The translations under genes and the position numbers were made by a program. Shown here one piece after another: positions 3,324 through 45,149 of a stretch of DNA of 64,000 bases. The notes beneath the pieces are model-generated. The model was given only the letters and a program-made list of their open reading frames with translations. It searched no databases and had not been told where the DNA came from. Source of the stretch: Sphagnum compactum. Its lineage: Eukaryota. Location of the stretch: positions 24,170,213 to 24,234,212 of the forward strand of contig OZ234493.1 in assembly GCA_965153455.1 (NCBI GenBank), in the 5' to 3' direction. Each line of letters begins with the position of its first letter. The stretch's first letter is position 1.

Positions 3324-4283
3324 TCTATATAGTATAGGACGTCGTGGTCGTGAAGCTTTGGGATGAAATGAAGCTTTCCATCCGTCCATCCGTCCTCCAT
3401 CTCGTCATCCGTCCGTCATCCATCCAAACAGAACAAATATATATTCAAAAAAGGGAATAAACTAATAATAATAATAAAAACAGAAAACACTTTAACAATT
3501 AGAAACTTTTTGTAAACACTTAAACATGAAACAAAAAAGGGAAATACAGTAAAATAATCTTAAAGGAAAATTAAAAAATAGATGACAAAAAATAAGAAAC
3601 AAAACAGAGAGCAAAAGAAAGAGAAAAAAAACCATACTTGAAAAAAAAATGAGATTTGTCTTCTTTTTCCAAACTTCAAACCTGCATCTAATCAAACAAA
3701 AATAATTTTTTTAAAAAAAATTATTTTAAAACATATTAGAAAAACTATAATTTTTTGGGAAAAGAAAATAGAAACTAAATAAAATAAATAAACGCATAAA
3801 AATAGAAAAATAAAATGAAGATAGACAAAATAAGAATAGAAAAAATTAAAACATGAAACAAACATAAACAAAAAAAAAGTAAAAACACAAAAACTATAAA
3901 AAAAGGAATGGAAACAAATGAAACAAGGAAAGGGAAATACAGTAAAATCGTTTTTAAAAAAAATTACAAAAAAGAAGAAACGAAATAAAGAGTAGAAAAT
4001 AAGAAAAAATAAAACTTATAGTAATGAAGAAAAACCCTACTTGAAAAAGAATGAGTTGTGTCTTCTTTCTCCAAACTTCAAACTTGCATCCAAGTAAACA
4101 AAAAAACAAAAGTGAAAAAGAAACACTTTATTTTTATTATACAAAATAATAATAATAATAATAATAACAGAAACACATAAAAATAAAAAATAAAAAAGAT
4201 AAAAGTTTTTTTTAAAAATTAAAACATGAACCAAACATTGTTGAAATAACACACATGTGCATTAGGCATGGGGTTCAAACTAG
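3324..4283 (+). mobile_element. probable non-autonomous Helitron-like element with A-rich ~420-bp internal repeats
   Basis: 5' TCTATATAGTATA and 3' degenerate hairpin CATGTGCATTAGGCATG ~10 nt before CTAG|T (4280-4283). Internal unit ...TTCTTTYTCCAAACTTCAAACYTGCATC occurs at ~3660 and ~4065. The 5' flank is T rather than the canonical A. Confidence 0.45.
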
Positions 4284-5229: not shown

Positions 5230-6108
5230 GGAGAGAAAAAATGAGTATCACCATTCAAAAGCACCTTATGTCCTAAAGCCTTCACTAGCAAATCAGACAA
5301 GGAAGTGAGCAAGGGAAAATTTAAAAGAGCACTTAGCTTGGAAAGGGCTTCCTTAGCAACAGCAACTTGTTTCAATATGGAGGCTACCTAAACTCTTTGC
5401 AAAACCGTTGACACCTTCTACCTATAAAATGTGTGTACCAAAATGAATACCAGATGAAAATGCCCTTGGCTAATCACATCATGTTAGCACATCGATGAAA
5501 AATATCATCAACGTATTGGTGTAAGCACCCAAGTACTTTTGTGGCAAGAAGGATAGACACATCCACTAGGTGCCAATCATGATAGAGCCTTTCCTTTACT
5601 CGGATTACAATTGTCACAATCATTTCCCAATGAATGGTAGCTTGTGAAACTAAATCTATTTTAGTGGCATTAACAATGATGACATTAACTAGAATGTGAA
5701 CCTATCAATGGAGAACATGATATCAACCCATTGAGGTGTGAAGATTGAAGGGAAGACAATGGGAAGATGATGAGAGGTTGTTCACATGAACCTCAATATC
5801 TTTGGCAATGAAATCAACAGCATCTCAAGCAACATCGAGGGAGGTAGTGTGTTCCCCTGCATGAGAACATCAAAGAAAAATGTATCCCCATTGGGTCTAT
5901 AGGCTGACAATGGGAAGATGATGAGAGGTTGTTCACATGAAACTCAATATCTTTGGCAATGAAATCAAAAGCATTTCAAGCAACATTGAGGGAGGTAGTG
6001 TGTTCCCCTGCAGGAAAACATCAAAGAAAATGTATCCCCATTGGGTTTATAGGCTAGCCACATATGCAACGGGTTAAACTAAAAGCTACTAAATGAGGGA
6101 GACCTAAC
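5230..6108 (-). pseudogene. 3' part of a decayed RLE-type (CRE/R2-like) non-LTR retrotransposon ORF (zinc knuckle and restriction-like endonuclease region)
   Basis: Minus-strand remnants INPMGIHFL*CFPAGEHTTSLNVA*NAFDFIAKDIEFHV, VDIMFSIDR..VNVIIVNATKIDLVSQA and LHQYVDDIFHRCANM fit the CCHC + PD..D RLE tail pattern from memory. Confidence 0.6.
5755..6055. repeat. ~150-bp tandem duplication within the non-LTR relic
   Basis: GACAATGGGAAGATGATGAGAGG...CCCCATTGGGT(C/T)TATAGGCT occurs at 5755-5905 and 5906-6055. Confidence 0.92.
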
Positions 6109-6598
6109 TAGTGTTGGGCAAATATCCAAATATCAAGCCTAGATATTAGCCCAAATATCACCCATGATATTTCAGTGGATGTCATTTTGGGTGGTATCTA
6201 ACTTGTCAAATATCCATTATGTGATATCATGTTCTTTGATATCTAAGGTCTATGTTATATACAAGGATCCTCATATCCAAGTCGAATATCAAATTCAAGT
6301 TTGGATTAGGATATCAAGTTAGTAATTAAGTTAATAATTAGGTTAGTAAATGATTAGGTTAGGAAAAAGAAAAAAGTTGTAGTTTGCAGCCACCACAACT
6401 TAACATTTTTCTTAATTTCTAATTTGTCGTGATGTGTAGGGTCGTGACGTTCGGTGTCGTAAGGGTGTAAATCCATAGTAAACTCTACTGAACAAAAAGA
6501 CTAAAACCAGTCAAAGGTAGAAACTAATCAACCAAAAATAGATGCACGCACATATATATACAATGCACAAGAGGAGGTAGAGATGAAATTCTCATGTA

Positions 6599-6610
6599 TC
6601 CCCCCCCCCT
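6599..6610 (-). promoter_or_regulatory. polypurine tract (candidate plus-strand primer)
   Basis: AGGGGGGGGGGA on the minus strand, ~40 bp after the pol stop and ~175 bp before the element's 3' end, where a Gypsy PPT normally lies. Confidence 0.6.
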
Positions 6611-6651
6611 AGACCTGAGCCAGGAAAAGCGTGGCATGGTCTGAATAGAAA

Positions 6652-6825
6652 TCAAACTATTGCAAGAGAACATGATGAACAGTACCAAATGCTGGCAGGA
6701 ACTTGAATGAGCTCCGGCTTGAGGCAAAATAGATGGTATCCACCATTACAATTATCGCAAAGCAGCATCTGATCAGCATCGTCTGTCCTCTGACATACTT
6801 GACATAGATAGTCAAGTGGAGGAAT
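6652..6825 (-). pseudogene. PHD finger (C4HC3) at the integrase C-terminus; not in the ORF track
   Basis: In frame after the TAG at 6826-6828 (probably a mutated TGG): IPPLDYLCQVCQRTDDADQMLLCDNCNGGYHLFCLKPELIQVPASIWYCSSCSLAIV*. All eight zinc ligands and the conserved W before the last CxxC are present. Confidence 0.93.
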
Positions 6826-8000
6826 CTAAGTCGGCGTGATGATGGTAGGATCTAAGTTCGGCAGGTGGCAAGGCGCACAGTTTTTGGAGTGATCTCGAAT
6901 TGTGCGTCCGTCAGCTCTTTGCAACTTCAACACACCTAAAGGCTTGATCGCCTTAATCCTCAAGATAGTGTGATCAGAAGAAACGTCTAGAGTATCATTA
7001 GGTTGCCGCTGGAGATACACAAAGTCACCAACATCAAATTGTTTCACCTTAGGTTTGTAAGTGCCATTTTGTGTGTGTGCATACCATAAGGTGTCTCGAT
7101 GTTGTGCAATGGACAAGTTCTCCATGGCCATGGGCATAACCCTCCTCTACGATGACCCTAGCCCAAATGGCTGGGGAGTCCAAGTCCACAACCTGGTCCA
7201 TTTGAGTAGCAATGGAAGAAGGTGGAATGGGATGTTTCCCAAAAAGTAGAAAGTAAGGAGAGAAATGAGACAAAAAGGCGTGTTTGGACATCCTGTAACC
7301 CATGGCGATGTAAGGTAGGGCCAGGTCCCAATCCTCTTTGTTCCTAGTGAGGCAAATCTTCCGAAATCCCTTCTTACATGTCTGAACCATCCTCTCTACG
7401 AGCCCATCAGGTTGGGGATGATCCCTTGAAGTCCGGCGATGGTCAATGAGAACATGATCAAGTAGGTCTTGGAATTCTCCTCTGAATTCTGATCCTTTAT
7501 CAGTAAGGCACTCAACATAAGCCCCAAACCTACTTAAGACTTGTTGTAAGAAAGCCTAGCTGGTGTTGTGTGATGACTTGTCTGGCAACGCAACAAGCTC
7601 GACCCACTTTGAAAAATGCTTAATCATAATCATGATGTAGACATTACCCTTGGAGGTCTGTGGTAACTTTTTAGCTAAATCAGATGACTAGAATATGCCT
7701 TAAATAGGGAATGGAAAAAGCATGAGCTGTCGAAAGGAGAAAAAAGTTCTCACTCTATCACATTGTTCACACCTAGCAATGACGTCTCGAACTTGAGCAT
7801 ACATACCTCTCCAATGGTAATGAGGAGCGAGAAGGCTATACGTACGCTTAACACGAAAGTGCCCAAGCTCCGACTGTACCTTCTGAATAAAACCAAGCCA
7901 TTCATGTGGTGGAGGAACCACTATGTCGCCTTGTGGTAAGCATCGGACGAGGTGATTGTCCCTCCATGGGTAGCTTTTGGACTGTTGTTGTATGCGATCT
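6826..8000 (-). pseudogene. DDE integrase with HHCC zinc-binding domain and SH3-like C-terminal region
   Basis: SELGHFRVKRTY...HWRGMYAQV...CEQC. Core DLAKKLPQTSKGNVYIMIMIKHFSKWVEL, VLTDKGSEF, HPQPDGLVERMVQT, WDLALP..MGYR, SPYFLLFG. Then FDVGDFVYL. Confidence 0.93.
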
Positions 8001-8248
8001 CGATGACTTGATGTAACTTGGGGAGGGTGTTCCCCATGCTGAAGAAACCTCAAAGTGTCCAAGTCCTCCCATATATCCACAATGGGATGTTCAACCAGGT
8101 TACGTTGCAATAGTGCAAGATAACTAGATGCATAAGATACATGTATAGCTGGAATCTGGTCGAAGTCTTGCCTGGCTTCTGAAAAATTTTCAGAAGTAGT
8201 GAGGGGTCTTTGTGACATGGTATCCACGTTCTGATGTGTAATACCAGA

Positions 8249-8600
8249 TTAGTGAATAACCTTGAACTCATACTCCTGAAGTATAAGTGCCCAACAAGCT
8301 AACTCACCAATAAACTTATCATTGGTCATCAACCATTTGATAAGCGGGTGGCTGATATACAAAGTGAACTTGGTGCCATAAAGATAGGGCCTGAAATGTA
8401 TGACAGCCCATACAACAGCAAGACACTCCCCCTCGTATGAAGAGTAGTTGCTTTCAGCCTTGTTGTTGCTTTGGGATGCATAGGCGATAACATATTCCTT
8501 GCCTTCTTCATCAAGTTGGCCGAGAATAACACTAATACCTAAAGCACTCCAATTAGTGTGTAGAATGAAGACCTTGCTGAAATCAGGTCTTCTCAAAATG
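8249..8600 (-). pseudogene. RNase H (Ty3/Gypsy type)
   Basis: PDFSKVFILHTNWS (TD>TN), VIAYAS, NYSSYEGECLAVVWAVIHFRPYLYG, WALILQEYEF. Confidence 0.93.
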
Positions 8601-8662
8601 GGGAACTCTGAAAGCTTTTCTTTGAGTGTGTTGAAAGCTTCCTAAGCTTCTTCACTCCATGT

Positions 8663-9420
8663 CTAAGCAACATCCTTATTTAAAAATGCATAAAGAGGAT
8701 GAACAATAGTCCTGAAGTCTTGGACATAAATCCTGTAGTAATTACATTGTTCGATGAAGCTCCTCAAAGTGTGAACATTAGTAGGATTGGGCATCTCCAA
8801 AATGGCTACTACTTTGGCCCAATGAGCCATAATACCATTTGACAAAATTCTATGGCCAAGGTAGACTACTAAGGTGATAGCAAATTCACACTTTTTAGGA
8901 TGGATCTTCATATTGACTTCATGGAGCCTCTTGAATAATTCCTCAAGATGAACCAAGTGCTACAGGAGTCCCTTGCTATGCACTAGGACGTCATCTATGT
9001 AGCACTTTAGGAAATCTGCCCCTTCGAGAACTTGGTCCATGATTCGCTGAAAGAAGACAGGTGCATTTTTCAATCCAAAAGGCATCACAAGCCATTCCCA
9101 CAACTTGTTGCTTCCATGGAATGCCGTTTTCTTGCGATCTTTTGCAACGAACACAATCTGGTTGAAGCCTTGTTTTAGATCCATAATTGTGAAGATGTTT
9201 AAGTCTCTAATGTTATCAAATAATTCTTCATCTGGCATTACTGTAGTGGCTGCGAAATCAAAACTTGATGGTTGAATGAGACTAGCCTCATGGAGCTTTT
9301 TGCATCTTTCATCTACCATTCATTCTTATTCAACCTATGCCTCCTCCGATAGATGGGTGTCTCATCTGTAAGGTCTATAGAGAACTGCATGGTCTTACAC
9401 CTACCTAAGTCTTTCATTGA
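8663..9420 (-). pseudogene. reverse transcriptase (Ty3/Gypsy type); disrupted with an internal deletion
   Basis: Motifs MDLKQGFNQI, KTAF, VMPFGLKNAPVFFQRIMD, YIDD (9001-8990), KCEF..VVYLGH and LRSFIEQCNYYRIYV. The usual K..R.C.DYR.LN...D.YP.P segment is missing between TTVMP and DEELFD. Confidence 0.95.
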
Positions 9421-9825
9421 GAATGCGAACACATTCTCATACTTAATTAGCAAGTCTGTGACCCGATCTCTTTCCTTCTTGGTGAGCTGGTTCCCCATAA
9501 CGAAAGGGTAGTCAAAAACACATGGAATGGAGTTGGAAAGTGTGTTTGAAGAACCTGGTGTATTGGGTTGTCCATTATCCAACTGCGTAGATTCGTAGAA
9601 GGTTGTAATTGTTTCTCCAGAAGCTGATGTACCTCCAAATGTATTAGAAACAACTTGAGTCAAATTACATGGTACCTCCTCCCCACCAACACTAAGAGTG
9701 AAGTGTTGAGTGTTGAAGATAGGCAAGTGTATTTGGTCGGGGTGCCATGTAGTCGCATCGCCAAAACTACAAGCTGATTGAATCAGTGCTAGTGTTGTGT
9801 ACATTTGAATGAGTACACAAGTTAC

Positions 9826-10770
9826 CAACAACCATGTAAGGGAGTTCAAATCCATGCCTCTCCCCAGTAGAACGTTATGCTCCAATCTAATCACCTTGGT
9901 GTGACTAGTAGTGCCAGTTTGGAACCCCATAGCCCTTTTTCTTTCTTCTAGGCTTGGTTCATCCCAAGTGGTTGAAGCATGATGATACACCACGCTTGGT
10001 CCATCTCCTTGAAAGGCGTGTGCTCTTGGGAAGGAGACAAAGTTGGGCCAAGCACCTCTTGGTTTTCCTATTGTGTTCGCAGGACACCAAGGAGGTTTTT
10101 CTTGCCTTGTAACTGGTTGGCAAGAGCTTTGATCATCCAATATGTGATAAACCTGCAGGTGGGGGTTTCTGATGGTGTATCTCAAAGCCAACTGCAGATT
10201 TAAGAATGGTGCAAGGTTGGTCCACCAGTTGCACAGTTGGTGCGCATAGGAACTGCATTGTGCCGCATCGAATAAGAGCGGTTCTCCAAGGTAATGCTTG
10301 ACCAGCGTGTAGTGCTCCTGGACTTTCTCCCTTTGGTCAAGTTGAAAATGGGTGTTCTCAATTACATAACCAAGTGTAGGAGAAATGGATTGAGCCTAGG
10401 TGATTAATCGTACCATGTCCGTGAAAAGATCCGATCTTGTGTCACTCAAATCTTTTCCAGATCCAACCGCTGAAAATCCTTGACATTCCCAACCTAAAAT
10501 GATGAAATCGACGAGGCCAAGTAATTCCATATGCTTCTTCTAAATTAGTTGTATGTCAGAGGGTAAGAAAGTGAAACTGGCCTTCCATGCGGTGGTTGCA
10601 AATTGTTGTGGAAATCTGGCTATGAGCTCCATCATTCTGATGCCGCCACTTGCCTTGCAATAGGATCAATGTCTACATAGAAATACTTCCGAACCACCAT
10701 CCTTGACTGTAGTAGGGCTTCGAGACCTATACCAATACCACCAAAGAGCTCTAGTAATGTAATCCCCTCT
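9826..10770 (-). pseudogene. C5 cytosine DNA methyltransferase domain (DNMT3-like) embedded in pol between protease and RT
   Basis: Manual translation gives the motifs in order. I: LLELFGGIG (10757-10731). II: YFYVDID. III: PSDI. IV: VDFIILGWECQGFS (Cys 10485-10483). V: RSDLF. VI: YVIENT (ENT 10359-10351). VII/VIII: FDAAQCSSYAHQLCNWWTNL. IX: EPSLEERKRAMGF. X: LLGRGMD. One frameshift (~10640) and two TAG stops. Confidence 0.93.
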
Positions 10771-10981
10771 TTAGGCGATGTCCAAGTGATTAGCTGACGA
10801 AGTACCAGTCTAATCGGTTCGCCATGGCTCTCCATGTTCTTAAAACTAGACAAAGTTTTGACCAAAGGCTCGTGGGCTGCTTTGAACCTCTATAAAATCT
10901 TTGGTCCGTGTTGAATGTTAGTAGGAACCACCCTCAAGCTTTTAGTAGCTTGGGCATAAGCTGTCTCCTCTTCATCTCCTT

Positions 10982-11458
10982 CTATCGACTCGTGGCTAGC
11001 TTGTTGGATGTAGGAAATGGTGTGTGCTTCCTTGAGCATACAATGGTGAACCATAGGATTATGGTTCCCATGTAAATCAAGGGTATGTATCCCAGGTGGT
11101 GGCCATTAGTCTCCCAATCCACTCGGTAGTACACATGCTCGAACCAATTGTCAATTGTGAAACTTGGTGGAAACAGGGCCTCTTGCCCAATGAGCACATT
11201 GTAACTGGTGGCATTTGTGACTAAACATTTGACCTGTAGGCAAAGCTCCTGATCTGTACTTTCATTGAAATTAAGTGCAATCAAATCTGAGCTCTCCCCA
11301 AATACCTCCTCTGCGCTCCCACTAGTAGTGCGAATTTGCCACATAGATTTTCGTAGTTTGGAGTCGAACATGCCCATCTTCTTGGCAAATTGAACTCTAA
11401 GAATCACTCGTTGGGCACCTGTATCAAGAAGTACCACTTTGGGTGTATATCCTCCCAC
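10982..11458 (-). pseudogene. retropepsin-like aspartic protease domain of pol
   Basis: PKVVLLDTGAQRVIL active-site motif and downstream YNVLIGQEAL (ILG-type motif). Confidence 0.88.
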
Positions 11459-11620
11459 CTAGATTGCTAACTCAATATTGTCAACAATGGCAACTCTGGT
11501 GGCGATGGAAGTTCTCTCACTAGGCACCACGTTCAAAAATGAATGAAAGACTTTGTGGAGAGAATGGCTATCCACAACGCCTTTGCTAAATAAGAAATCC
11601 ACAAGTGAAGTGTTCTTAGT

Positions 11621-13925
11621 TCACTTCTGATATCTGAATGTAGAATCAGAGGTAGGAGAGCCCACTAGTTTAGCCATGTTAGAACTAGTGACCAGATTAC
11701 GAACGCCATCTGCAACACATGAGTTAATCGAGTGTCTCTCCAAGGTGTTGGATGAGACCCTTGTAGCATGTGGATCAGGGATTGGTAGAAGACCAAACGT
11801 AGTGTTCAGGGTATCCTTTAGTATTGCAATTATGTCCTTAGTGCTTAACTTCAAATCTTGAAAACTAAACAACAGTGTACTCACAAGCTTTTGCGCCACT
11901 TCACACATTTGAAGTTGGCACTCCATAAGCTGATCAGTGGAAAATTGTGTGTTTTCCTGATGTACGTGTACTCCTAGGACACAAAAATTTGATGCCCTAG
12001 TAGCTTTTTGTGTAGTAGTCTCCTCCCCCCTCGCCAACAAGGTGCGTTCTTTTCCGTGTTGAGAGGACGAAAAGATTATGGCATGACTACTCGAACTCCT
12101 CTAGCCTTGGTAATAGGACTTGAACTAGATGCAAGTCCATCAGTTTGAATTACTTGCCTAATGGTAGAAACTGTAGGTGCCACATTAGCCTCTTGTGCCG
12201 CGAAGTAAGAAAGGCAAAAAGAAGTGGCAAATTTTGGTGTGAAACTTAAATTATGTGCATTAAAAAGAATATACTCCCGAACCATGGCATCGTGTGAGAC
12301 GCCATAGAACGAGCTAGGAGGTCCCTCCCGTGATCTTGAACCCTGTACAGGTTGAGAATGACTAGCTGGTTGGGAAGACTTGCTTTTTAGATTAGCAAGT
12401 TGGGCCCTTAATGATTCGAGTTCATTTTGTAGAGTTTGAATTTGAGCGGCATGGGCTTGAAGCACCTCCCTCTTGTCAGCATTGTGCTCCTTCTTTTTAG
12501 CATTCTTACTAGAATTACCCTTGGTGGGGAAAGCCTGAGTGGAAGGCTGAGGTGTTTTGGCTTTTGGTTGAGGGGCAGTGGAAGATGCTGGCAGATTTTG
12601 CCATGGTAATCGAAGTTACTTTCCGTTCCGAGAACTTGACAAAGCAAACAGCTTCCTGATGTTCTTCTTTCCCACAATAATCACAAAAGAGATCCTCGAA
12701 AGGAATGTTGCAGTCACTAGATTTATGGGCAAGATTGCCATAGTAGTTGCAAGAAGGTAGGATGGGTGTAACCGAGTGCACCGATTTAGCCCTTGAAAAA
12801 GAATGTGATGATCTGGTTGGCGTAGCTGGTGGAGGCTGAGGCCATGAACATGATGGAGGCCTCATAGTACTAGCCTCATAATGTGCATGAGCTAGTTCCA
12901 GCTTTTCAAAAATGTTGTACACATCTAGCAAAGTGTACGAATCTCCAAATTCTACAAACACCCGTTGTAAAACCTACACATGGACTGTCAGAGTACTTTC
13001 CAACGAACAAAGATACCGATGGGCAACTTATAGGTCTATGATGTTCTAAGTATCCTCTTTAAGGTTGAGAAGCCTCTTATAGAACATCTTGAAGGTTTCA
13101 TCCTTCTGCCGATAGAAGGTGGCGAGTTGCAAAAAAATTCAGAACTTTTGACCGGAAATTCTAGCTCAAGAACTCGAAAGAATTCCCTCACTGGATCAGC
13201 AAAACTTGGTGCATCGATGGTGGGAGGAATGTTTGCGGTAGTAACAATGAGTTGTTCAGGAGAAAGGTTTATTGAAGTAGGTACCGGATTTGGATTATTG
13301 GGCACAATCCAATGATGTGCAATGGCAGCTTCCAGTGCAGCTTGAGAGGCGGTGGCGATGGCTGTGGCATAAGCTGGATTGGGGATTTGGGTGACGCCCA
13401 AAATCCTCGGAGAATGTTGCTCGTGGACATCCAATGCCTCATAGTGCACATAACGAACTAGTTATTTGAATGTGAATGTCTCGATGTAATTAGCGCCATA
13501 CTTGAACTCCAATTCACAAACCATGGTTGAGAAAGTTGCCTTGAACTCCCTCAAAAAAATGGTACCTGGCCTTCCGCTAAATTTCTCAATTCTCTCAGAA
13601 GAATTCCTGACCTCCATGGTGTATATGGGTGTACAGGTAACGCCTTGTAGCGAAATATATGGTGATGGTGTGAAGTTGGTGCGGCAGCAGGCGTACCCCA
13701 CTAATTAACCCTTCCAAATGGACTCTGATGTACCGTTGATGTAGTGTAACTTAAACCTAAATTCCTTATAGGAGTTGTACTAAATGACGGTGGTGTTGTA
13801 AACGCTTCATGGTACCATCGTGAAGATCGTGAGCTTAAAGAAATCGACTCAAATGATTGTGTGTTGCTTCATAGCTAATACCTTGGTTCTGGCTGAGCAG
13901 TAGTGCTCTCATCATCCGAAGACAT
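11621..13925 (-). pseudogene. gag: gag-like polyprotein region with two CCHC zinc knuckles and a coiled-coil stretch; disrupted
   Basis: Fragment IEKFSGRPGTIFLREFKATF, knuckles SCNYYGNLAHKSSDC (degenerate) and FCDYCGKEEHQEAVC (ORF 12515-12961), and coiled coil QIQTLQNELESLRAQLANLK. Candidate ATG at 13925 (MSSDDESTTAQPEP). Several stops and frameshifts. Confidence 0.75.
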
Positions 13926-14100
13926 GGTGTTCTCCCGTGCCCCAAAATTTTGTAGCAATACAGAGCACTAGTTACAAAGTTTTAACACAACATGTGGTTT
14001 GAAGAATACGGTGCGTCGACGAGGATGAACGATGACTGACGGACGTCGGTGGACAGTAGGGGCCAGACGAACGGACGTGGACGAAACTATGACAATCGTT

Positions 14101-14198
14101 GAACGGAACAAAGACGAACGTCAAATGAAACGATCTGAACCGGAACGGACCAAAGATGAACGTCAGATGAAACGATCCGAACCGGAACGGACCAAAAT
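14101..14198. repeat. 42-bp CpG-rich tandem repeat (~2.3 copies) in the element's 5' leader
   Basis: GAACGGAACAAAGACGAACGTCAAATGAAACGATCTGAACCG / GAACGGACCAAAGATGAACGTCAGATGAAACGATCCGAACCG / GAACGGACCAAAAT. Confidence 0.9.
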
Positions 14199-14740
14199 AG
14201 ATTGAAACAAAACGGAACGGAACGGACGGCGCTACAAAGCAATCCGTGTCCGTAAACTCTACAATGATGGCCTGGATGTAAATCAGTGCGTAGATGCTTA
14301 GTGGGTACTTAGTAAGCGTGAGTGAGATCGGAAGCTTAGGCTTGTAAAAGCTTGTAGTAGTAACCACCATGGGCTTTTCCGATGTCCCTTCTCCCTCGCT
14401 TAAGTTGTTCCTAATTATTGTTGTTGTTCCAATTGTAGCTGCAGTACAAGAGTAAAAAATAAAAATAAAATAACAACAACTCTAAAACACAAGAAACCAA
14501 CAAGCAAAAAAAACCCAAGAAACTCAAAGCCAGGAAAAAGCTGTCGCTTTCAACATTAAATGACATAGAGCAATTTTTCTAAAATTAAATTGAAAAGAAA
14601 GAAAGAAAACGTAGTGTATGTAAACGGTAGTCATGTAATAGTCGTCGTGAGCATCTAGAAACCAGTCTAACTATGGAGGAAAAATTTTGCTGACAAAAAA
14701 ATTCTAGAAAACTTAACATGAAAAGGGAAGAGCTTGGCTT

Positions 14741-14855
14741 TTTATATAGCCGTCAACAAGCTGAAACCCTAAACAAGCCATAACCCTAAAAGACTTAATA
14801 GCATATTGTAACCTAAAAATGTACATTAACCTTAAGCGCGTACATTAACCCTAAA
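14741..14855 (-). promoter_or_regulatory. candidate element promoter: TATA box with upstream telo-boxes
   Basis: TATATAAA on the minus strand at 14741-14748. AAACCCTA at 14764-14771 and AACCCTAA near 14782 and 14848. All lie within ~180 bp of the element's 5' end. Confidence 0.5.
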
Positions 14856-16441
14856 AGGCATGATTGACATGCCTGTAACCGCCCATCATGTAAGAGGCCA
14901 TGTATACGGGCATGACAAATTCTCTTTCATTCTTAATTTTAATTTTTTTTTTCTTTTTTTTGTATTTTTTCTTTGCTCTATTCTCACACTGTACTTACCC
15001 TTTCCTTGGCCTCTTGCAAGTTATTGTAACATTTGAAGTAAGTTTTTGTTTTCATTCTTTTGTTTCCTCTTTTCTATTTTTATTTTTTCCATTTTTCTAT
15101 TTCTTGAAGTAAAGTGTTTCTTTTTTTTATTTTTGTATTTTTTTTGATTGGATGTAGGTTTAAAGTTTGAATAAACAAGACAAATCGCATTCTTCCTTAG
15201 GTTTTTTTTTTCAATACTATAAAAATAAAAATAAATTGTTTGCTCTCTATTTCGTTTCTTTTTTTTTTAATTTATAAAAAAATGTGTTCAACTATATTCC
15301 CCTTCGTTTATTTCATTTGTTTCCATTCCTTTTTCTTCTTCTTCTTTTGTTTATGTTTGTTTCATGTTTTCCTTTTCTTCTATTTTTATTTTATCATGTT
15401 TTCATTTTTAAAATATTTTTATGTGTGTTTTTTTTTCAATTTTCTTTTTCAAAAAAATTAATGTAAAAAATTTAGTATAAATAGAGTGTTTGTTTTTAAC
15501 TTTTGTATTTTTGTTTGTTTAGATGTTGGTTTGAAGTTTGGAGAAAGAAGACAAACCTCATTATTTTTCAAGTATGGTTTATTTTCATTACTATAAGCTT
15601 GTTTTCTCTTTTTTTTGCTTTTTGATTTGTTTTTTTTTTCTTTTAAAAATATCTTTACTGTATTTCCCCATTTTTGTTTCATGTTTGAATCTTTTTGAAT
15701 CTTTTTTTCATTTTTTTCATTTTTTCTGTTTTAAAATTTAAATTTTTTTTTGTTTCTGGTTTTCTTACTAATTTTCATTTTATTTTCTATTTCTATTCTA
15801 TTTTCTGGCTTTTTTCCTTGTTTGTATTTTGTATTTTTTTGGTTTTTTTCTTTTTTGTTACAACTTTGTTTCATTTTATTTTCTTTTTAATAACTTGTGT
15901 TCTTCTTCTTTAACTTGAAATCTATTGTGTTGTTTCTTTTTTTTTCTTCTTGTTTCTCAAAAAAATTCATATTTTTTTAGTTTTAATTTTAATTTGATTT
16001 TATTTTTTAAAATTGCAAGACTACATGAGCTTTCTAAGTTTTTCAGCCTTCACATTGTAAAGGATTATTATATTTTTTACTTTTGGCTTGTCATAGTCAT
16101 TTTTTGATATGAAGGGAGTGAAAAATGAGTGCTCATGTACTTTGGAAATGTTTTGTAAATGTTTGCATGCGCACATTTTAGATTTTAGGATTTTTTTTCA
16201 AACCTTTTGTGTAAACTTGTTTTAAATCCAAGTTGTTGATATTTGAAACCGATATCTGATTGAAAAATAACAACAAATATTAGGTAGATTGATATCCTAG
16301 TTGAATAAAAAACTTAAAAATATGATATCCGGCCTAGATATTTAAATTGGAAAATAAATTCTAATATCTAGTTTAAATAAATAATTTTGACATATCCTTA
16401 TCTAACAGATATCACAAAAAGATGATATTTGCCCAACATTG

Positions 16442-33719: not shown

Positions 33720-36100
33720 AGAAACCTTTTAGCTATCCTAAATATAAGAAAGACTCTGATCTAGATGCTCATGTACGAGTATTCAAAGCCACTATCAAAG
33801 CTAATTATGAAATGATAGATGAGGAAATAACAAATCTATTCAATTTTACATTGAAAGACAATGGATCAAATTGGTGCAATAACTATATGCGAAATCATCC
33901 AAATTGTAAATTTGTAGATTTAGAATAGGTTTCTTGTAGACAATATTGGATTTTGGGAATAGAAGATAATCCACAATCAATTAACGTGAATGCCCAATTG
34001 GTTGAGGAAAACATGAGTTCTTTGATAAAGTTGTTGATTGAGTACAAGGACATCTTTGCATGGACATATAACGACCTAAAGGTCATACTTCCAAAATTTG
34101 CACAACGCCATATTGAGTTCGGCACATCAATTCCACCAACACATTAGGCCATGTACAAAATGAATCAAAATTATGTTGCGGCTATTAAATTAGACATAGA
34201 TAAACTATTGGAAGCTAAATTAATATAACATGTAGAAAAAGCTATTTGGCTGTCACCAATAGTGGTGACTCCTTAAAATAATGGAAAACTTAGATCCTAT
34301 GTAAATTTCAAAAAACTAAATGTAGCCACAAAGAAAGATCCATACCCATTCCCTTTTTCTAAAAGATGTTCTAAACGTTGTTGCAAGGCATGATGTTATT
34401 CCTTTTTAAATGGATACTTTAGATATCACCAAATATTTATAACACCAGAGGACATATACAAGATAACCTTTGTAATAGAGATACTCTCGATATCACCAAA
34501 TATTTATAGCACTAGAGGACATATACAAGATAACCTTTGTAATAAGGAGCTTTTACTTGGGTAGTGATGCCATTTGGAGTGAAAAATGGACCTCCTACTT
34601 ACCAAAGGGTAGTAAGTAAAGCCTCCAAAGATTATTTGGACAAATTCATGAAGATTTTTCTAGATGATTTCATTATTTATAATGACATGGATACTCATCT
34701 AGATAAGCTTAAACTATGCTTCCAAAATTGCAAAGAATTTGAGATTAATTTGAACCTAGTAAATGTGCCTTGAAAACTTTATAGTATTTTCAAGGATGAT
34801 ACTAGGGTTTATAGTATCCAAGGTAAACTAGTAGTTTGTAAGAAAATCTAAGCCATAGTTTAGATGTTTGTACCCACAAATCCATAGCAAATTTAGGTAT
34901 TCAACTGAGTGGCTTGGTTCTATAAATGTTTCATCAAGAATTCTACATTCATAATGGCCTCAATTACTAAACTCATGAAAAAGATAGAATAATTTCTATG
35001 GACCCCCAAGTGTTAGGTAATTTAGGAGTTGATAAAGCAAAAATATATAAAAACACCTATTCTCATATCTCCAAATGGGGATATAGAGTTTCATGTTCAT
35101 ACAGATGCATCATTATTAGTTGTTAGTAACATAGAATCTAACAGGGAAGCATGATAAGCCTATTGTTTACGCTTTTAGACTTTTAAATAGAGTATAGAGA
35201 AATTACAATACCATAGTACAAGAAGCTTTAACAATGGTATTCACATTTCATACGTTCACACATTACTTACTAAATAATAAGTTTGTGTCCTATGTTGATC
35301 ATATGGCTTTGGTATATTTAGTGAACAAACCACATGTTTTAGGTTGTATTACTAGATGGTTACTTTTATTTTTGGAGTATGAATTCACAACTAGGACATA
35401 TACATGTAGTGGCAAATGCGTTATCTAGGTTACCATACATAATAAAATTGATAGGAATACCTAATCAAACCATAGATGTAACTTTGTTCAATTATAGTTG
35501 ATTTGGTTGGAAGAGGCCAAGGATTATTTATAGACATGACAAATGCCTAAAATCCTAACCAACACTTTAAAATAAAGGCTAGCAAAAAAATTAGAAACTT
35601 TTACGATACAAGATGAAATTATATACCCAAATGGATTAGGACAATAGATTTCAACGCTACATGTATAAAAGATCTTGCGGCAATTCCATGAGGGTTTTGT
35701 AAGTGGCCATTTGCAACAAACATCGTTGCAAAGATCTTAGATGTAGGATATTAGTGGCCCACACTATTTAATCACACTACAAAATATTGTAGATCTTGTG
35801 ACAGCTACCAATGAGTTGGAGGTTCAACAACACAAAATTTGGCTAAGTTAGTCACTACTTTCCTAGGATAACCATTTATGAAATGAGGATTGGATTTCAT
35901 TGGACCAATCAAACTAACGTGATGGTTCACATGTAATAAATATATTATTGTAATCATAGATTATGCTACCAAATGGGTGGAGGCCAGGGTGCTTTAAATG
36001 AATACTATGGCTCGACCACAACAAAAAAATTTGTGAATATATTTTGACTCACCTTAGTGACAAATCAAGGAGTTCATTTTATTAATGATGTTCTTAAGTA
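33720..36100 (+). mobile_element. heavily decayed Ty3/Gypsy (non-chromovirus, Athila/Tat-like) gag-pol remnant
   Basis: gag YPKYKKDSDLDAHVRVFKATIKAN...FNFTLKD; DIFAWTYNDLK; MPFGVKNGPPTYQR...IFLDDF; FHVHTDAS; YVDHMALVYL...RWLLLFLEY; PFMK*GLDFIGPI; IDYATKWVEA; TNQGVHF. The protease region is deleted (~33950) and there are many stops. Confidence 0.88.
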
Positions 36101-38339: not shown

Positions 38340-38705
38340 AACGGTCAAACCTACAAAATCGATCAACCTTCTAATTAATCTTCTCAAAGATCTTAGTTTG
38401 TCATTAAACATCCTTGATCATCAGTAAGTGCAAAGTTGGTCAAACTTGTAAAATCGATTGATCTTCTAGTTCGTTTTTTTGAATCCTAGTTTGTCGTCGA
38501 ACGTTTTTAATTATGAGTTAGTGTAGAGTTAGTCAAATTTGTAGAATTGGTTGATCTTCCAATTGTTTTTTTCTAAATCCGAATTTATCGTCAAGCATCC
38601 TTGATCTTGAACAACTACAAAGTTGATCAAACTTGTAAAATTGGTTGATCTTCCAATTAGTCTTTTCAAATCCCAGTCTATCATTGAAAGCCTCATCAAA
38701 CATTT
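38340..38705. repeat. degenerate ~90-100-bp tandem repeat (~4 copies)
   Basis: Recurrent GTCAAACTTGTAAAATCGATTGATCTTC(C/T)AATT...ATCCTAGTTT motif at ~38345, 38440, 38532 and 38626. Confidence 0.75.
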
Positions 38706-38984
38706 TCCCAATTCTTGTATTATTGTTTATTGTGGCAATGGTGCCCTTGAAACCTCCATTGAACTTCAAGTTTTGTCTTTTTTTTCAACCTCTGTAGTAC
38801 CTAATTATGCAACAAACCACACACCGAATGAATCACCTAACATTTATATTGGTTTAGCTCCTAACTCACTATCACCTACATCTCTTGCTGTAATCAAGGG
38901 TAAGAGTTTGTTGGTTTCCGAATCTACACTTGCATTTGAATCTATAGATCATATGTCAAACCTTTGAAGTAATGAACCAAAGAA

Positions 38985-39075
38985 TAAAAAGCCAAAAAAA
39001 TTTGAATGGGAAATAAATATAGTTTTTCAAGATTGATGGGCAATTAGGTTCCCCAGGTTTGAGCTAATATGTGGA
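38985..39075 (+). pseudogene. short relic resembling the N-terminal (TTF-type zinc finger) region of a hAT transposase
   Basis: KKPKKFEWEINIVFQD*WAIRFPRFELIC resembles the R.FQ..W...(L/F)PW motif. Confidence 0.35.
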
Positions 39076-39224
39076 GTTTTGTTGTGCTCATATATTAATT
39101 TTTCACTTCTATACGTTTCCACTTTCTGTGGTAGTCTCTAAAATAAGAAATACCTTTTGCCATAAGATGGTAGCTACCATTGGTAGACATGAGATTTGAG
39201 GTCTATAAGGAAGGCAACGTTGTT

Positions 39225-39600
39225 TTAAATGGTAGGCAATAACCACAAAGGGTTTGAAGGCAATATAGATAGTAGGCAACAACCACAAAGGATTTGAAAT
39301 TGTTGTAGATGGTAGGCAATAACCACAAAGGATTAGAAGGCATTATAGATAGTAGGCAACAGCCACAAAGGATTTGAAATTGTTGTAGATGGTAGGCAAT
39401 AACCACAAAGGGTTTGAAGGCATTATAGATAGTAGGCAACAGCCACAAAGGATTTGAAATTGTTGTAGATGGTAGGCAATAACCACAAAGGATCTCCAAG
39501 CATTACAAACAGTAGGCAACATTCACAAAGGGTTTGTAGGCATTGTAGATGATAGGAAGTAGCCACAAAGGATTTGTAGGCACTATAGATGGTAGGCAAC
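39225..39600. repeat. 40-bp minisatellite (~10 units) with alternating A/B monomers
   Basis: (G/A)GTAGGCAA recurs at 39231, 39271, 39311, 39351, 39391, 39431, 39471, 39511, 39551 (degenerate) and 39591. Confidence 0.95.
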
Positions 39601-40079
39601 AATTGTACGAGGTCTAAAAGTGGTTATGGGTCTTTTTCAAGTCTATAAAGGACAGTAGTTTGCTATAGGACGGTAGTTATAACATGATCTTAAGCAAAGA
39701 AAAAGTAGTCCTTACCTTCAAGTCTTTCCATTTTTCTTATTATTTTTTTCTAATCCAACAACCATTTGCATGTTAGTAATTAAGTTGCCACATCCCGCAA
39801 TTTTACACATACAACAATAAAGAAAAATGGGGAAAAAATTAGGGATTATTTTTGGTGTGACATCATGAACTTCATAATAAAAAAGCTATCCATGATGTTT
39901 AAAATAAACTAAGCAGAAAAAATACATTTACATAAATGTATAATAGTTTAGTATATGAAAAATTTATAATTTATAATTTTACATACATCTTGGAGTTTGC
40001 ATGCATGAACATTTTGACCTAATCACTAACCCATACAAATATAAATGTGAAACTTACCAAGATTATATACATGCATTTC

Positions 40080-40820
40080 AAGAAATTATGATGAGTGCAT
40101 AATGCGACTCATGAATAATGGATGTAACACATTCAAAATGAATGATTCAACTCCAATGCAATTATTGTTAATAGTTCAAGAAATGTGAAAAAACTCACTA
40201 GTATGTTGTTGTGTGTGTTTCAATATATACTAATAAATGTAATATGCAACATTTGAGTAATGGTTTCAATTAGTCCAAAGTGAATGATTCAACTCATGTA
40301 CACATGTTGACAATTGAAAAGATGTGAAAAAAAACATTAATTCATTCCAATATAATTGCAAAACATTAAATTGCATGTGTTTTAATATATTTTGATAAGT
40401 TCAAGATGCAACCTTTGAATAATAGTTTTAACATATTAAAAGTGAATAGTTCAACTCATGTACACATGTTGACAATTGAAAAGATGTGAAAAAAATCACT
40501 AATTCATTCCAATATAATTGCAAATCACTTAATTGCTTGTGTTTTAATATATTTTAATAAGTGCAAGATGAAAAATTTGAGTAATAATTATAGTATATTG
40601 AAAGTGAATAATTCAACTCATGTACACATGTTGACAATTCAAAAAATGTGAAAAAATCATTAACTCATTCTAGTATAAATGTGAGGTCTTAAATTGTTAC
40701 ATTTCTTTTAATAAATAATGATAAGTGTAAAATGCAACCCATGAACCATGGTTTCGAAATATTAAAAGTGAATGTCTCAAATCATGTACCACATTGACAA
40801 TTGAAAAGATGCCAAAAAAA
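40080..40820. repeat. ~161-163-bp AT-rich satellite-like tandem array (~4-5 units)
   Basis: AAAGTGAAT..TTCAACTCATGTACACATGTTGACAATT starts at ~40278, 40439, 40601 and 40765, with a degenerate copy at ~40135. Confidence 0.9.
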
Positions 40821-43000: not shown

Positions 43001-45149
43001 ACATACATAAATCCTTCAAGACTCGATCTTATGAAATGTCGATTCTTTTGTATGGGACTTTAGAATTAAAAAATTTAACAATGGAATGGGTTCTTGAATT
43101 TTTTTCACTTCTTGAAAGACTCTTGGGGAAGTCACTTCCATTTTTTTTTCCAAACAACATGCAAACAAATATAAAATCCAACTAGTTTATTAAAAAGTAA
43201 AAAATAATAATTTTCTTAAATGTTAATAAGATGCCTATCTATGATTCATTATGAAAATATACATAGAATACATTTAAATTTTCTCCATTTAATTTATTTT
43301 TTCAATATTCCATTATTTCATAACATACCAAAAAAAAACCTTTTATTTTAGGTGTTTCTAACCCCCTCTCTCCCCCAGGAAGATTGTTAAACATTAGGTG
43401 AAACATTAGTAATAGCAAGTTGTCTCTGGGTCTTGTATAGGTTCAAAAGGGCAACGTCCTTCGTAGAGACATACATGCATTCATGGCTATTATTCCATGC
43501 TCTTTATTATATATGATGACGCCTTTGGGATGGTAGGTATTACTTTGTTTAACCTCTTCTTGGTGGACATTATGGTAAACAACACATTGCATCTATTGAG
43601 ACTTTAATGAATCCACAAAGGTAGAAAGAAAAATTGATTGAAAAAAATGCATGTCTACTTGTCATTATGTGCCATATTAGAAACTAGAACTATGAGCTAA
43701 AGGAGAGGTTTGTATTGCACATGCTTCAACTTACAAAATCTCTTCCTTGTAGACCTTTCCTTCAACATTTAGTTCACCAAAGGATTTAAAATGAAAATTT
43801 TAACTTCACCAACATGAGCATTGATTAACACATGTGAGGCTTTGCAATTATGTTCCCTTCAAACCACAAACCCATTCACCTGCCATCATAACAATAAAAA
43901 ACAAAAACACTTGACCTAAACACCTTAAACCAATAGTGAAACTCGAGAATGCTAACCAAGTTTAAGAAACTCAAGAATGTTGACAAAGTTCAGGAAATTG
44001 ATGCAGCAAAATGAACATATGAATAAAGCACATAACTTGAAGATGAGAGAAAAACAAAGTAAAGCAAAAAACGAAGAAGAAGAATGCAAAATTTACTTGA
44101 ACTTGTAAAACTCCTCCATGCTTGTGAATCACTTGGAAACATCATTGCAAAGCAAAGAAATTTGACTATTTGGTCAAATTCACAATTACATTGCATGCCA
44201 TTGATGCTTTAAGTGTTTCTTGATTGCACCATTAATTCCAAGATATATTTTCTATCATTTTTCTACATGTTCACAACTCCTCTATCCTATATATAGAGGG
44301 TAAACACACCCATGACTAAGCACAAGTCAATAACCAAACACATCCATATAATCCTCATTTCTTGTTTTGGTTTATAATGCACCGCACAAGGGTCTAAAAT
44401 ACAACTTTGAATTCTAGAAGCAATTGAGCAACAAATAAAAAGTAGGAAGAGAATGAACATGCCTCAAGAATAAAATGTTTGAAAAAATATGCAATTGAAA
44501 CTCCCAACTTTCAAACCCCCTATCTTTTTCATTTCTTGTCCTTTTTTAGAGATTTAAAATGGTGTGGGCGCATCAACTTGATCTTTACAATCCCTTTTTG
44601 AATTATAGAAGCAACAAAGTTATGTCCAAAAATCTTAAGCTCCAAATGCTTACAGTGCTAAACCGAACATTTATTGCTCCAAATTAAACATCACTTCCAA
44701 ACCCCATATTTTCCTCATATTTTTGCCAAGTTTGAATGATTTTCATGGCGATGGGTGTGCCAAATGGTGGTCCACAATATCTCGTTGAACTCCATAGGTG
44801 ACCAAACTATGTCCAAGGAGTTTAAGCTCTCAAGAACTAAAGTGTTTGAACATTAGCCTATCTATCCTAACCTTTAAAACCTAAACACCCTAATCTACAT
44901 GCCCTAACCATGTAAAAATCCAAGAATGAATCCAAACATATGTAAATCATGAGGCATAGGAGGGGGAAGGTTCTTAGGCCTATTTGAATTCCCAAGAGTG
45001 TGAGGCGCCGTACAATCTCTTGCATTCTTGAGGTGTAGGCATAATAAGAATCGTCCTCTTTCTATGGGGGATATTCACAAATATAGGTGCCCTTCAAATA
45101 GGCTAAGAAATTTCTCCGAGTGCTTTAAAATTATGTTAGACATCTAGAG

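Follow-up and report, generated by a model that had tools for sequence, protein, structure and literature searches.

A dead Ty3/gypsy retrotransposon of Sphagnum compactum with an integrase-borne PHD finger, a candidate reader of unmodified histone H3

We analyzed a 64,000-nucleotide stretch of the Sphagnum compactum genome (assembly GCA_965153455.1, contig OZ234493.1, positions 24,170,213 to 24,234,212 of the forward strand), hereafter the window, and found on its minus strand a dead copy of a Ty3/gypsy retrotransposon whose polyprotein (Pol) ended in an integrase fused to a PHD finger. An in-frame TAG that arose by decay of a TGG codon now separates the two. The family to which the copy belongs encodes a DNMT3-like C5-methyltransferase, and its terminal repeats are split. 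We consider it reasonably probable that in active members of this family the PHD finger binds histone H3 unmethylated at lysine 4 (H3K4me0) and steers integration.

The string that the original prediction had read as a complete C4HC3 PHD finger was found letter for letter on the minus strand. Translation of minus-strand positions 7146..6580 gives ...NCAPCHLPNLDPTIITPT, a stop, IPPLDYLCQVCQRTDDADQMLLCDNCNGGYHLFCLKPELIQVPASIWYCSSCSLAIV and a second stop. The 57-amino acid piece between the stops matches PF00628 with an E value of 3e-13 and 50 bits against a gathering cut-off of 24; because residues 8-52 of the piece cover the full profile (positions 1-47 of 47) at these scores, the match is far beyond chance. 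Eight of eight zinc ligands are present with the spacing C-x2-C-x11-C-x2-C-x4-H-x2-C-x14-C-x2-C, from Cys1 at 6804 to the final Cys at 6670, and Pol likewise ends 4-5 residues past the last Cys in sister proteins. As had been remarked beforehand, the stop-to-stop list of open reading frames (ORFs) of at least 80 amino acids lacks the PHD piece, since only 57 amino acids lie between the TAG and the TGA.

The frame upstream of the TAG is the integrase C-terminus – it is 72-88% identical to proteins that carry both PF00665 (rve) and PF00628 – and translation and alignment together place the PHD finger in frame behind the integrase and one TAG, as predicted. An AlphaFold2 model built on an 88-row alignment (mean predicted local distance difference test score, pLDDT, 73.5) contains the PHD finger at residues 115-159, with block-mean pLDDT of 82-88 over residues 111-160, and a beta-barrel with strands at residues 61-92, with block means of 76-90 over residues 61-100. 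The barrel holds a motif, NCAPCHLP, in which A91, P92, C93, H94 and L95 are at least 90% conserved among 88 relatives; its Cys-x2-Cys-His lies near the PHD finger and might form a further metal site. The modeled barrel and PHD finger superpose on Tudor-PHD cassettes (PHF1, MTF2 and the TTD-PHD of UHRF1) only at a root-mean-square deviation (rmsd) of 11-18 Å; in the model, the likeness to Tudor-PHD proteins is one of domain order and not of a fixed two-domain unit.

Sister loci were collected by a scan of metagenome contigs in which 600 stretches matched and 541 encoded relatives; 80 were kept. The codon at the TAG site is TGG in 77 of these loci, TAG in 2 and TTG in 1, and all 14 of the closest protein relatives (P0002-P0015, 72-88% identity) have Trp at this position. 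Because of these counts, the TAG is a private decay mutation without functional meaning. Programmed read-through of the TAG was considered and is ruled out by TGG in 77 of 80 sister loci. The original prediction had expected TGG in place of the TAG in sister copies and had named a conserved stop or a missing PHD as findings that would speak against it; a PHD finger follows the integrase in all 80 loci.

These observations also bear on whether the PHD finger is foreign to the element protein – a chance pattern, a captured host exon or a domain reached by read-through. Such a reading can draw on the in-frame TAG between integrase and finger in the window and on the TAG of two sister loci. The strength of the PF00628 match, the presence of the finger in every sister locus, the TGG codons and the continuous ORFs of relatives refute it, the last being open from the integrase into the PHD finger in P0002-P0013 as well as in distantly related algal proteins, and we give it next to no credence.

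The fusion is widespread. A length-relaxed protein search with the read-through translation as query (X at the stop) returned 103 matches at E<=1e-5 among 183 candidates, and 88 of the 103 carry PF00628 and integrase domains; models from Sphagnum magellanicum and Calypogeia fissa are among the closest 14. Across 88 aligned relatives (35-86% identity) the zinc ligands are invariant or at least 90% conserved. A second search, with the methylase-to-PHD part of the relative P0044, covered 5170 candidates, of which 406 proteins passed E<=1e-10; among the best 120 of these, 118 carry PF00628 and 34 carry PF00145. Named sources in this search are Haematococcus lacustris, Tetrabaena socialis and Chromochloris zofingiensis, to which a cluster look-up added Hariotina reticulata. 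When 1.84 billion cluster representatives were searched without an index, 179 reached E<=1e-30 and 955 reached E<=1e-10; in 146 of the best 150 the match spans the integrase–PHD junction. Across the sequences compared, the integrase-borne PHD finger thus holds constant throughout a large Ty3/gypsy family of the green lineage.

The original prediction had described the PHD finger as standing in place of a chromodomain. The chromodomain profile PF00385 is present in none of the 223 listed relatives (103 + 120) and, by Pfam, nowhere in the window, which leaves chromovirus ancestry without support. In a search with residues 1-700 of the relative P0033, which drew only generic reverse transcriptase matches, chromodomain elements appeared as distant matches of this kind only (24-32% identity). 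No Klebsormidium protein turned up in the homolog searches, which were limited by shared words and make this absence weak evidence.

Three further observations concern the spread of the family. P0028, a Marchantia polymorpha protein (MARPO_0060s0038) annotated as a PHD-type zinc-finger protein, consists of an integrase C-terminus and a PHD finger with a disrupted last Cys pair, and looks like a liverwort relic of the same integrase–PHD family. Among sequencing runs, the best share ~0.4 of sampled words and contain short family fragments at very high summed depth; among the matches listed, none bears on the TAG site. Family fragments also occur on contigs of a moss metatranscriptome, where their presence does not equal transcription.

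To which histone state such a finger binds can be judged from its nearest solved counterparts. Among PDB sequences, 81 match the PHD finger at E<=1e-3. The nearest are the fingers of KMT2D, KDM5D, KMT2C, WSTF, Lid, EHD3, CHD4, ATXR5 and KDM5A, with DPF2, BAZ2B, KDM5B, KAT6A, BAZ2A, UHRF1/2, ORC1b, AIRE and PHF21A further on; fingers of the ING, BPTF or TAF3 type are absent from the best 60 of the 81 matches. Foldseek matched the model to ATXR5 with H3 (rmsd 0.8 Å, 48% identity), to BAZ2A and ORC1b with unmodified H3, and to DPF2/3, UHRF1 and KDM5D; the rmsd to ATXR5, BAZ2A/B, DPF2/3 and UHRF1 is 0.8-1.5 Å. The template modeling (TM) score by target is 0.78-0.85 to the PHD fingers of BAZ2A/B and ATXR5, as befits a PHD fold. 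The types that had been named from the sequence at the outset – KDM5 PHD1, BAZ2 and UHRF1 – are therefore found among the nearest solved PHD fingers by both sequence and fold.

Individual residues point in the same direction. In the part of the structural literature consulted, PHD1 of KDM5B is described as engaging H3K4me0 with D308, D328, W351 and the strand L324-L326 and as having no aromatic cage (PMC4225485). The window's M-L-L-C-D and the Trp before its last Cys pair stand at the places of L324-L326, D328 and W351. An acidic DDAD precedes the MLLCD strand (DDAD-Q-MLLCD), and the Asp after Cys3 is at least 90% conserved in the family. Two residues before the zinc-binding His the finger has Gly, not Trp, at what we take to be the position of the aromatic-cage Trp. 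The finger combines an xLLCD strand and acidic residues with no aromatic cage, and both sequence and modeled fold support grouping it with readers of the unmodified H3 tail (KDM5 PHD1, BAZ2A/B, ATXR5, UHRF1 and AIRE).

We propose that in active members Pol ended in integrase, barrel and PHD finger. The finger would bind the N-terminal tail of H3 when Lys4 is unmethylated, and would tether the integration complex to K4-unmethylated nucleosomes and away from active promoters, as chromodomains would in chromoviruses; the methylase, which shares a polyprotein with the finger, could afterwards methylate the freshly inserted copy. We infer both the H3K4me0 binding and the targeting, the former from likeness to solved fingers and the latter by analogy. 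The flanks of delimited insertions fit the targeting model: all 12 flanks of 6 insertions are AT-rich, with GC of 0.21-0.37 against 0.41-0.43 in the element.

The methylase of the window copy is a remnant. Motif I (LLELFGGIG, 10757..10731), motif IV (GWECQGFS, 10494..10471), motif VI (GYVIENT, 10371..10351) and motif VIII (SYAHQLCNWWTN, 10251..10216) can be read on the minus strand in a region interrupted by stops and a frame change, on which the PF00145-bearing relatives P0029 and P0033 fall by tblastn. The window's own methylase pieces have no Pfam match, and the 360-amino acid ORF that spans methylase and reverse transcriptase leader has no PDB match at E<=1. Because of this lack, we assessed likeness to DNMT3 on the relative P0044. 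Its methylase domain (332 residues) matches DNMT3C, DNMT3A and DNMT3B in all of the top 26 PDB sequences, with a best E value of 1.1e-9; DRM2 (~8e-3) and then M.HhaI (0.03) come next. Because DNMT3C/A/B match first, these comparisons support a DNMT3-like methylase at the level of the family.

The position of the methylase varies. It precedes the reverse transcriptase in P0033 and in the window copy, whereas Pfam coordinates place it after RNase H and ahead of the integrase in P0029, P0044, P0067, P0043 and P0071; the PHD finger directly follows the integrase in all of them. Because there are two layouts while the PHD finger stays behind the integrase, the methylase has changed place, or been acquired, more than once in this family. 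Its mobility matters for an alternative in which the PHD finger mainly serves the methyltransferase, its H3K4me0 reading licensing self-methylation in the manner of an ADD domain with little effect on the landing site. A PHD finger and a DNMT3-like domain do share one polyprotein in 8 of 103 and 34 of 120 listed relatives, and in 5 of the 8 relatives scanned the methylase lies immediately upstream of the integrase–PHD block. Yet the finger is always on the integrase C-terminus and never adjoins the methylase, its position is fixed while that of the methylase shifts within Pol, and 84 of 118 listed PHD-bearing proteins have no PF00145 call (some, such as P0095, nevertheless align over the region). 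We regard this alternative as quite unlikely.

Several points weigh against H3K4me0 binding and integration steering as we propose them. The specificity for H3K4me0 is itself an argument from similarity, and the best PDB sequence match is the PHD finger of KMT2D, which we take to be a reader of histone H4 and not of H3K4me0. KDM5B D308 has only an approximate counterpart, an Asp that precedes Cys1 by three residues, and conservation of this residue does not extend to the wider family. AT-rich flanks could equally reflect which insertions survived and may have nothing to do with targeting; the overall GC of the window, only 35%, further weakens the argument from flanks. A search for an intact sister copy found no ORF of 600 amino acids or more on the element strand at any of the 80 loci (the longest has 555); all eight zinc ligands are kept in only 32 of 79 sister copies. 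The main text of the description of a DNMT3-carrying Gypsy element from Klebsormidium nitens (PMC5890265) contains 'phd' 0 times, with figures and supplements outside the check. Motif IV reads GWECQ in 21 of 21 pattern-matched sister copies. Motif IV of C5-methyltransferases canonically contains Pro-Cys, with Pro before the catalytic Cys; this pair, expected of a Gypsy-DNMT3 element, is kept in algal relatives (GWPCQ or GFPCN) and lacking in the moss subfamily. Because Glu replaces that Pro, the methylase of the moss subfamily may be inactive or altered. The original prediction of a DNMT3-like writer thus holds for the kinship of the domain; whether the moss domain writes is doubtful.

The first two of these points speak for another ligand – methylated H3K4, H4, H3R2 states or a host protein – with targeting directed elsewhere, or for a finger that is structural only: KMT2D is the closest sequence, and the family does not conserve the Asp with which KDM5B contacts Lys4. 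UHRF1-type fingers, which are among the PDB entries matched by fold, read H3R2 and not K4. Set against this are the missing aromatic cage residue at the expected place, the acidic DDAD ahead of MLLCD and the Asp that follows the third Cys, which are traits of unmodified-tail readers, and the closest folds, which are complexes with unmodified H3. On balance we find another ligand unlikely, and H3K4me0 binding by active members remains the reading that we favor.

The window copy itself is dead, and nothing of the proposed working is still possible there. It spans 14917..6425 (8.5 kb) between the two halves of a 4-bp duplication, AATT, and minus-strand ORF fragments from ~13700 to 6652 encode, in order, gag-like, protease, methylase, reverse transcriptase, RNase H, integrase and PHD segments (Table 1). 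The order protease, reverse transcriptase, RNase H and integrase, with an integrase of the DDE type, is that of Ty3/gypsy elements. Pfam searches gave no match for the gag-like region or for the integrase core piece; the former contains an intact CX2CX4HX4C knuckle at 12685..12644 and a decayed one (C to Y) at 12751..12710. Compared with the intact relative P0007 from reverse transcriptase to PHD, the copy has 8 in-frame stops, a frame that changes near 7146/7139 and a 36-amino acid deletion; its ORFs reach 360 amino acids at most. P0007 has Q at three of the eight stops, W at three, R at one and H at one. Among private substitutions in a 7-way alignment (6425..14017), 84 of 159 in the window copy are C>T or G>A, and these two classes make up 55-75% in six sister loci. 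This bias, with stops on former Q, W and R codons, fits decay by deamination of methylated cytosines. Eighteen of the 80 sister loci are stop-free over the integrase C-terminus and PHD finger.

Table 1. Features of the Ty3/gypsy copy in the window, in element order.
Feature	Position	Strand	Evidence
Target-site duplication AATT, 5' side	14918..14921	.	Flank ...aaagagaatt / TGTCATGCCCG
Terminal repeat A1, element start TGTCATGCCCG at 14917	14584..14917	-	Alignment to sister loci
Gag-like region, ORF fragments	11621..13704	-	Translated motifs; homologous with sister copies
Aspartic protease remnant	10982..11458	-	PF13975 E 1.8e-5, 25.7 bits, below 28.2 cut-off
DNMT3-like C5-methyltransferase remnant	9814..10769	-	tblastn of P0029/P0033; motifs
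Reverse transcriptase, YIDD at 9001..8981	8663..9319	-	PF00078 E 9.2e-17
RNase H	8249..8641	-	PF17917 E 5.5e-32
Integrase N-terminal H2C2 zinc-binding domain	7700..8248	-	PF17921 E 8e-12
Integrase catalytic core remnant, frame differs from C-terminus	7147..7555	-	Alignment to PF00665 part of P0002-P0013
Integrase C-terminal beta-barrel module with NCAPCHLP (6882..6859)	6829..7146	-	Translation, alignment, model
In-frame TAG, private mutation of TGG (Trp)	6828..6826	-	80 sister loci; 14 close relatives
PHD finger C4HC3, all ligands intact	6804..6670	-	PF00628; PDB sequence matches; model fold
Terminal TGA of Pol	6654..6652	-	Translation; relatives' ends
Run of 10 G, polypurine-tract-like, abutting repeat B	6600..6609	-	Sequence; same arrangement in sister loci
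Terminal repeat B, element end ...CATCACGACA at 6425	6425..6599	-	Alignment to sister loci
Target-site duplication AATT, 3' side	6421..6424	.	...CACGACA / aattagaaat

The two identical long terminal repeats (LTRs) of a Ty3/gypsy element are not seen. Neither blastn nor a repeat search found direct terminal repeats in the window, and sister loci have split repeats of the form A1...B1-A2-B2: those with long flanks carry A1 at the 5' end and a B1-A2-B2 block at the 3' end. Both repeat pairs are present in six loci (L028, L034, L039, L066, L067 and L072) and the A pair alone in three (L051, L059 and L068). The window copy is a short form, A1-internal-B, without the A2 and B2 of the full form. Its A1 is 74-86% identical to the 5' A and 3' A2 copies of L028, L034, L039, L066, L072, L068 and L051, and its B is 80-89% identical to sister B1 and B2, with homology ending at 6422-6441. 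The element ends, TGTCATG...CACGACA, are of the TG...CA type, and of 8 unique sister insertions whose 5' end can be recognised, 5 lie between exact 4-bp target duplications. Two sister loci, L004 (536..9666) and L039 (1514..11183), agree in their flanks and in their duplication, CCAA; the A2-B block is missing from L004, which measures 9130 bp against 9669 bp in L039. Because these loci share flanks and differ by that block, the short form probably arises from recombination between B1 and B2, or from assembly collapse.

The B1–A2 junction reads CACGACA-NN-TGTCATG, which resembles a circle junction, and a G-run precedes B1. The integrase ends coincide with this CA-NN-TG junction inside the repeat block, an arrangement that would arise if a circular or tandem-repeat intermediate had been cut at a site resembling a circle junction. 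A more ambitious reading takes this coincidence as a sign that the clade integrates permuted cDNA and adds that it has also rebuilt the logic of animal DNMT3, with an H3K4me0 reader that would select K4-unmethylated chromatin and, in one polyprotein with it, a methylase that would mark the element's own copies. We hold the conjunction of the two to be rather unlikely.

Elsewhere in the window, an inverted repeat (3522-4133 vs 15686-15107; ~600 bp, 74% identity, A-rich, internal period ~400 bp) flanks the element on both sides, which places it inside a different repeated structure. The plus strand at 34546-35389 contains a further reverse transcriptase/RNase H remnant, unrelated and heavily decayed, with 27-36% identity to the reverse transcriptases of relatives and many stops, and tandem arrays with periods of ~93, 40 and 162 bp occupy 38390-40790. 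Outside the element the window has only two ORFs of at least 140 amino acids. The window ORFs 1746-2207, 45144-45599, 5474-5701 and 13972-14481 match no Pfam family.

Gypsy elements that bear a PHD finger and Gypsy elements that carry DNMT3 are both already known; what is new here is the bryophyte member and its anatomical detail. Literature that pairs a PHD finger with a DNMT3 domain, or that reports the bryophyte family, was not found in text searches, which did not cover figures and supplements. In the parts of the published record consulted, KnitGypsy-Dnmt3 of Klebsormidium nitens is a Gypsy element with DNMT3 and a DIRS-like repeat structure (PMC5890265, legend of Fig. 4c), its acquisition is interpreted as an event of the K. 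nitens lineage only (de Mendoza et al. 2018, PMC5890265), and a 'Gypsy-DNMT3 of streptophytes' is named in a preprint (bioRxiv 10.64898/2026.05.21.726589). The family described here shares with KnitGypsy-Dnmt3 its Ty3/gypsy domains, a DNMT3-related methyltransferase inside Pol (broken in the window), split, DIRS-like repeats (of which the window has only A1 and one B) and a streptophyte host. It differs in its hosts, which are bryophytes (Sphagnum, Calypogeia and the Marchantia relic) and chlorophytes, and in the state of its moss subfamily, which is dead and whose motif IV carries Glu in place of Pro.

Bryophyte members, decayed in all copies seen, thus join the DNMT3-carrying Gypsy elements of Klebsormidium, and the spread over bryophytes and chlorophytes widens the published view of a lineage-specific acquisition. 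In the portion of another account available to us, transposon-encoded methylases are said to be missing from land plants (PMC6338049); the bryophyte copies run against that statement, as far as it can be read there, and qualify it. If the PHD finger reads H3K4me0, the family would offer a natural system for a transposon that chooses silent chromatin and methylates itself – questions that suit the active algal members and not the dead copy in the window.

Among retrotransposons with PHD fingers, the sources consulted in part name REM1 and Gypsy-7a_cRei of Chlamydomonas and CR1-like LINEs (long interspersed nuclear elements; PMC6673714, PMC8557442, PMC9940879); a PHD finger is listed among the Pol domains of Gypsy-7a_cRei (PMC9940879, legend of Fig. 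6), and fusions of PHD and Chromo domains to transposons were surveyed by Grau-Bove et al. (bioRxiv 10.1101/2021.11.30.470311). Like these algal and animal transposons, the present family has a PHD finger as an accessory chromatin reader in a retrotransposon Pol; unlike those described in the portions seen, it has the finger at the integrase C-terminus of a DNMT3-carrying element and occurs in land plants. Chromoviruses carry a chromodomain at the integrase C-terminus, for which a role in steering integration has been proposed (PMC6673714, in the part seen, citing Gao et al. 2008). The family resembles them in having a histone-reader domain at that site, and departs from them in that the reader is a PHD finger, with no chromodomain in any listed relative, and that the repeats are split and not plain LTRs.

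With PHD fingers that bind unmodified H3 (KDM5A/B/D, BAZ2A/B, ATXR5, AIRE PHD1, PHF21A/BHC80 and UHRF1) the window finger has 32-51% identity and an rmsd of 0.8-1.5 Å in common; unlike them, it sits on a transposon integrase, and its Lys4-contacting Asp is only approximately placed. DIRS elements, in the part of the account seen, have split direct repeats in the order A1-internal-B1-A2-B2 and no target duplications (PMC8969392). The repeats described here follow the A1-internal-B1-A2-B2 order of DIRS, PAT and Ngaro elements; unlike those elements, members of the family encode an rve DDE integrase rather than a tyrosine recombinase, have TG...CA termini and lie between 4-bp target duplications.

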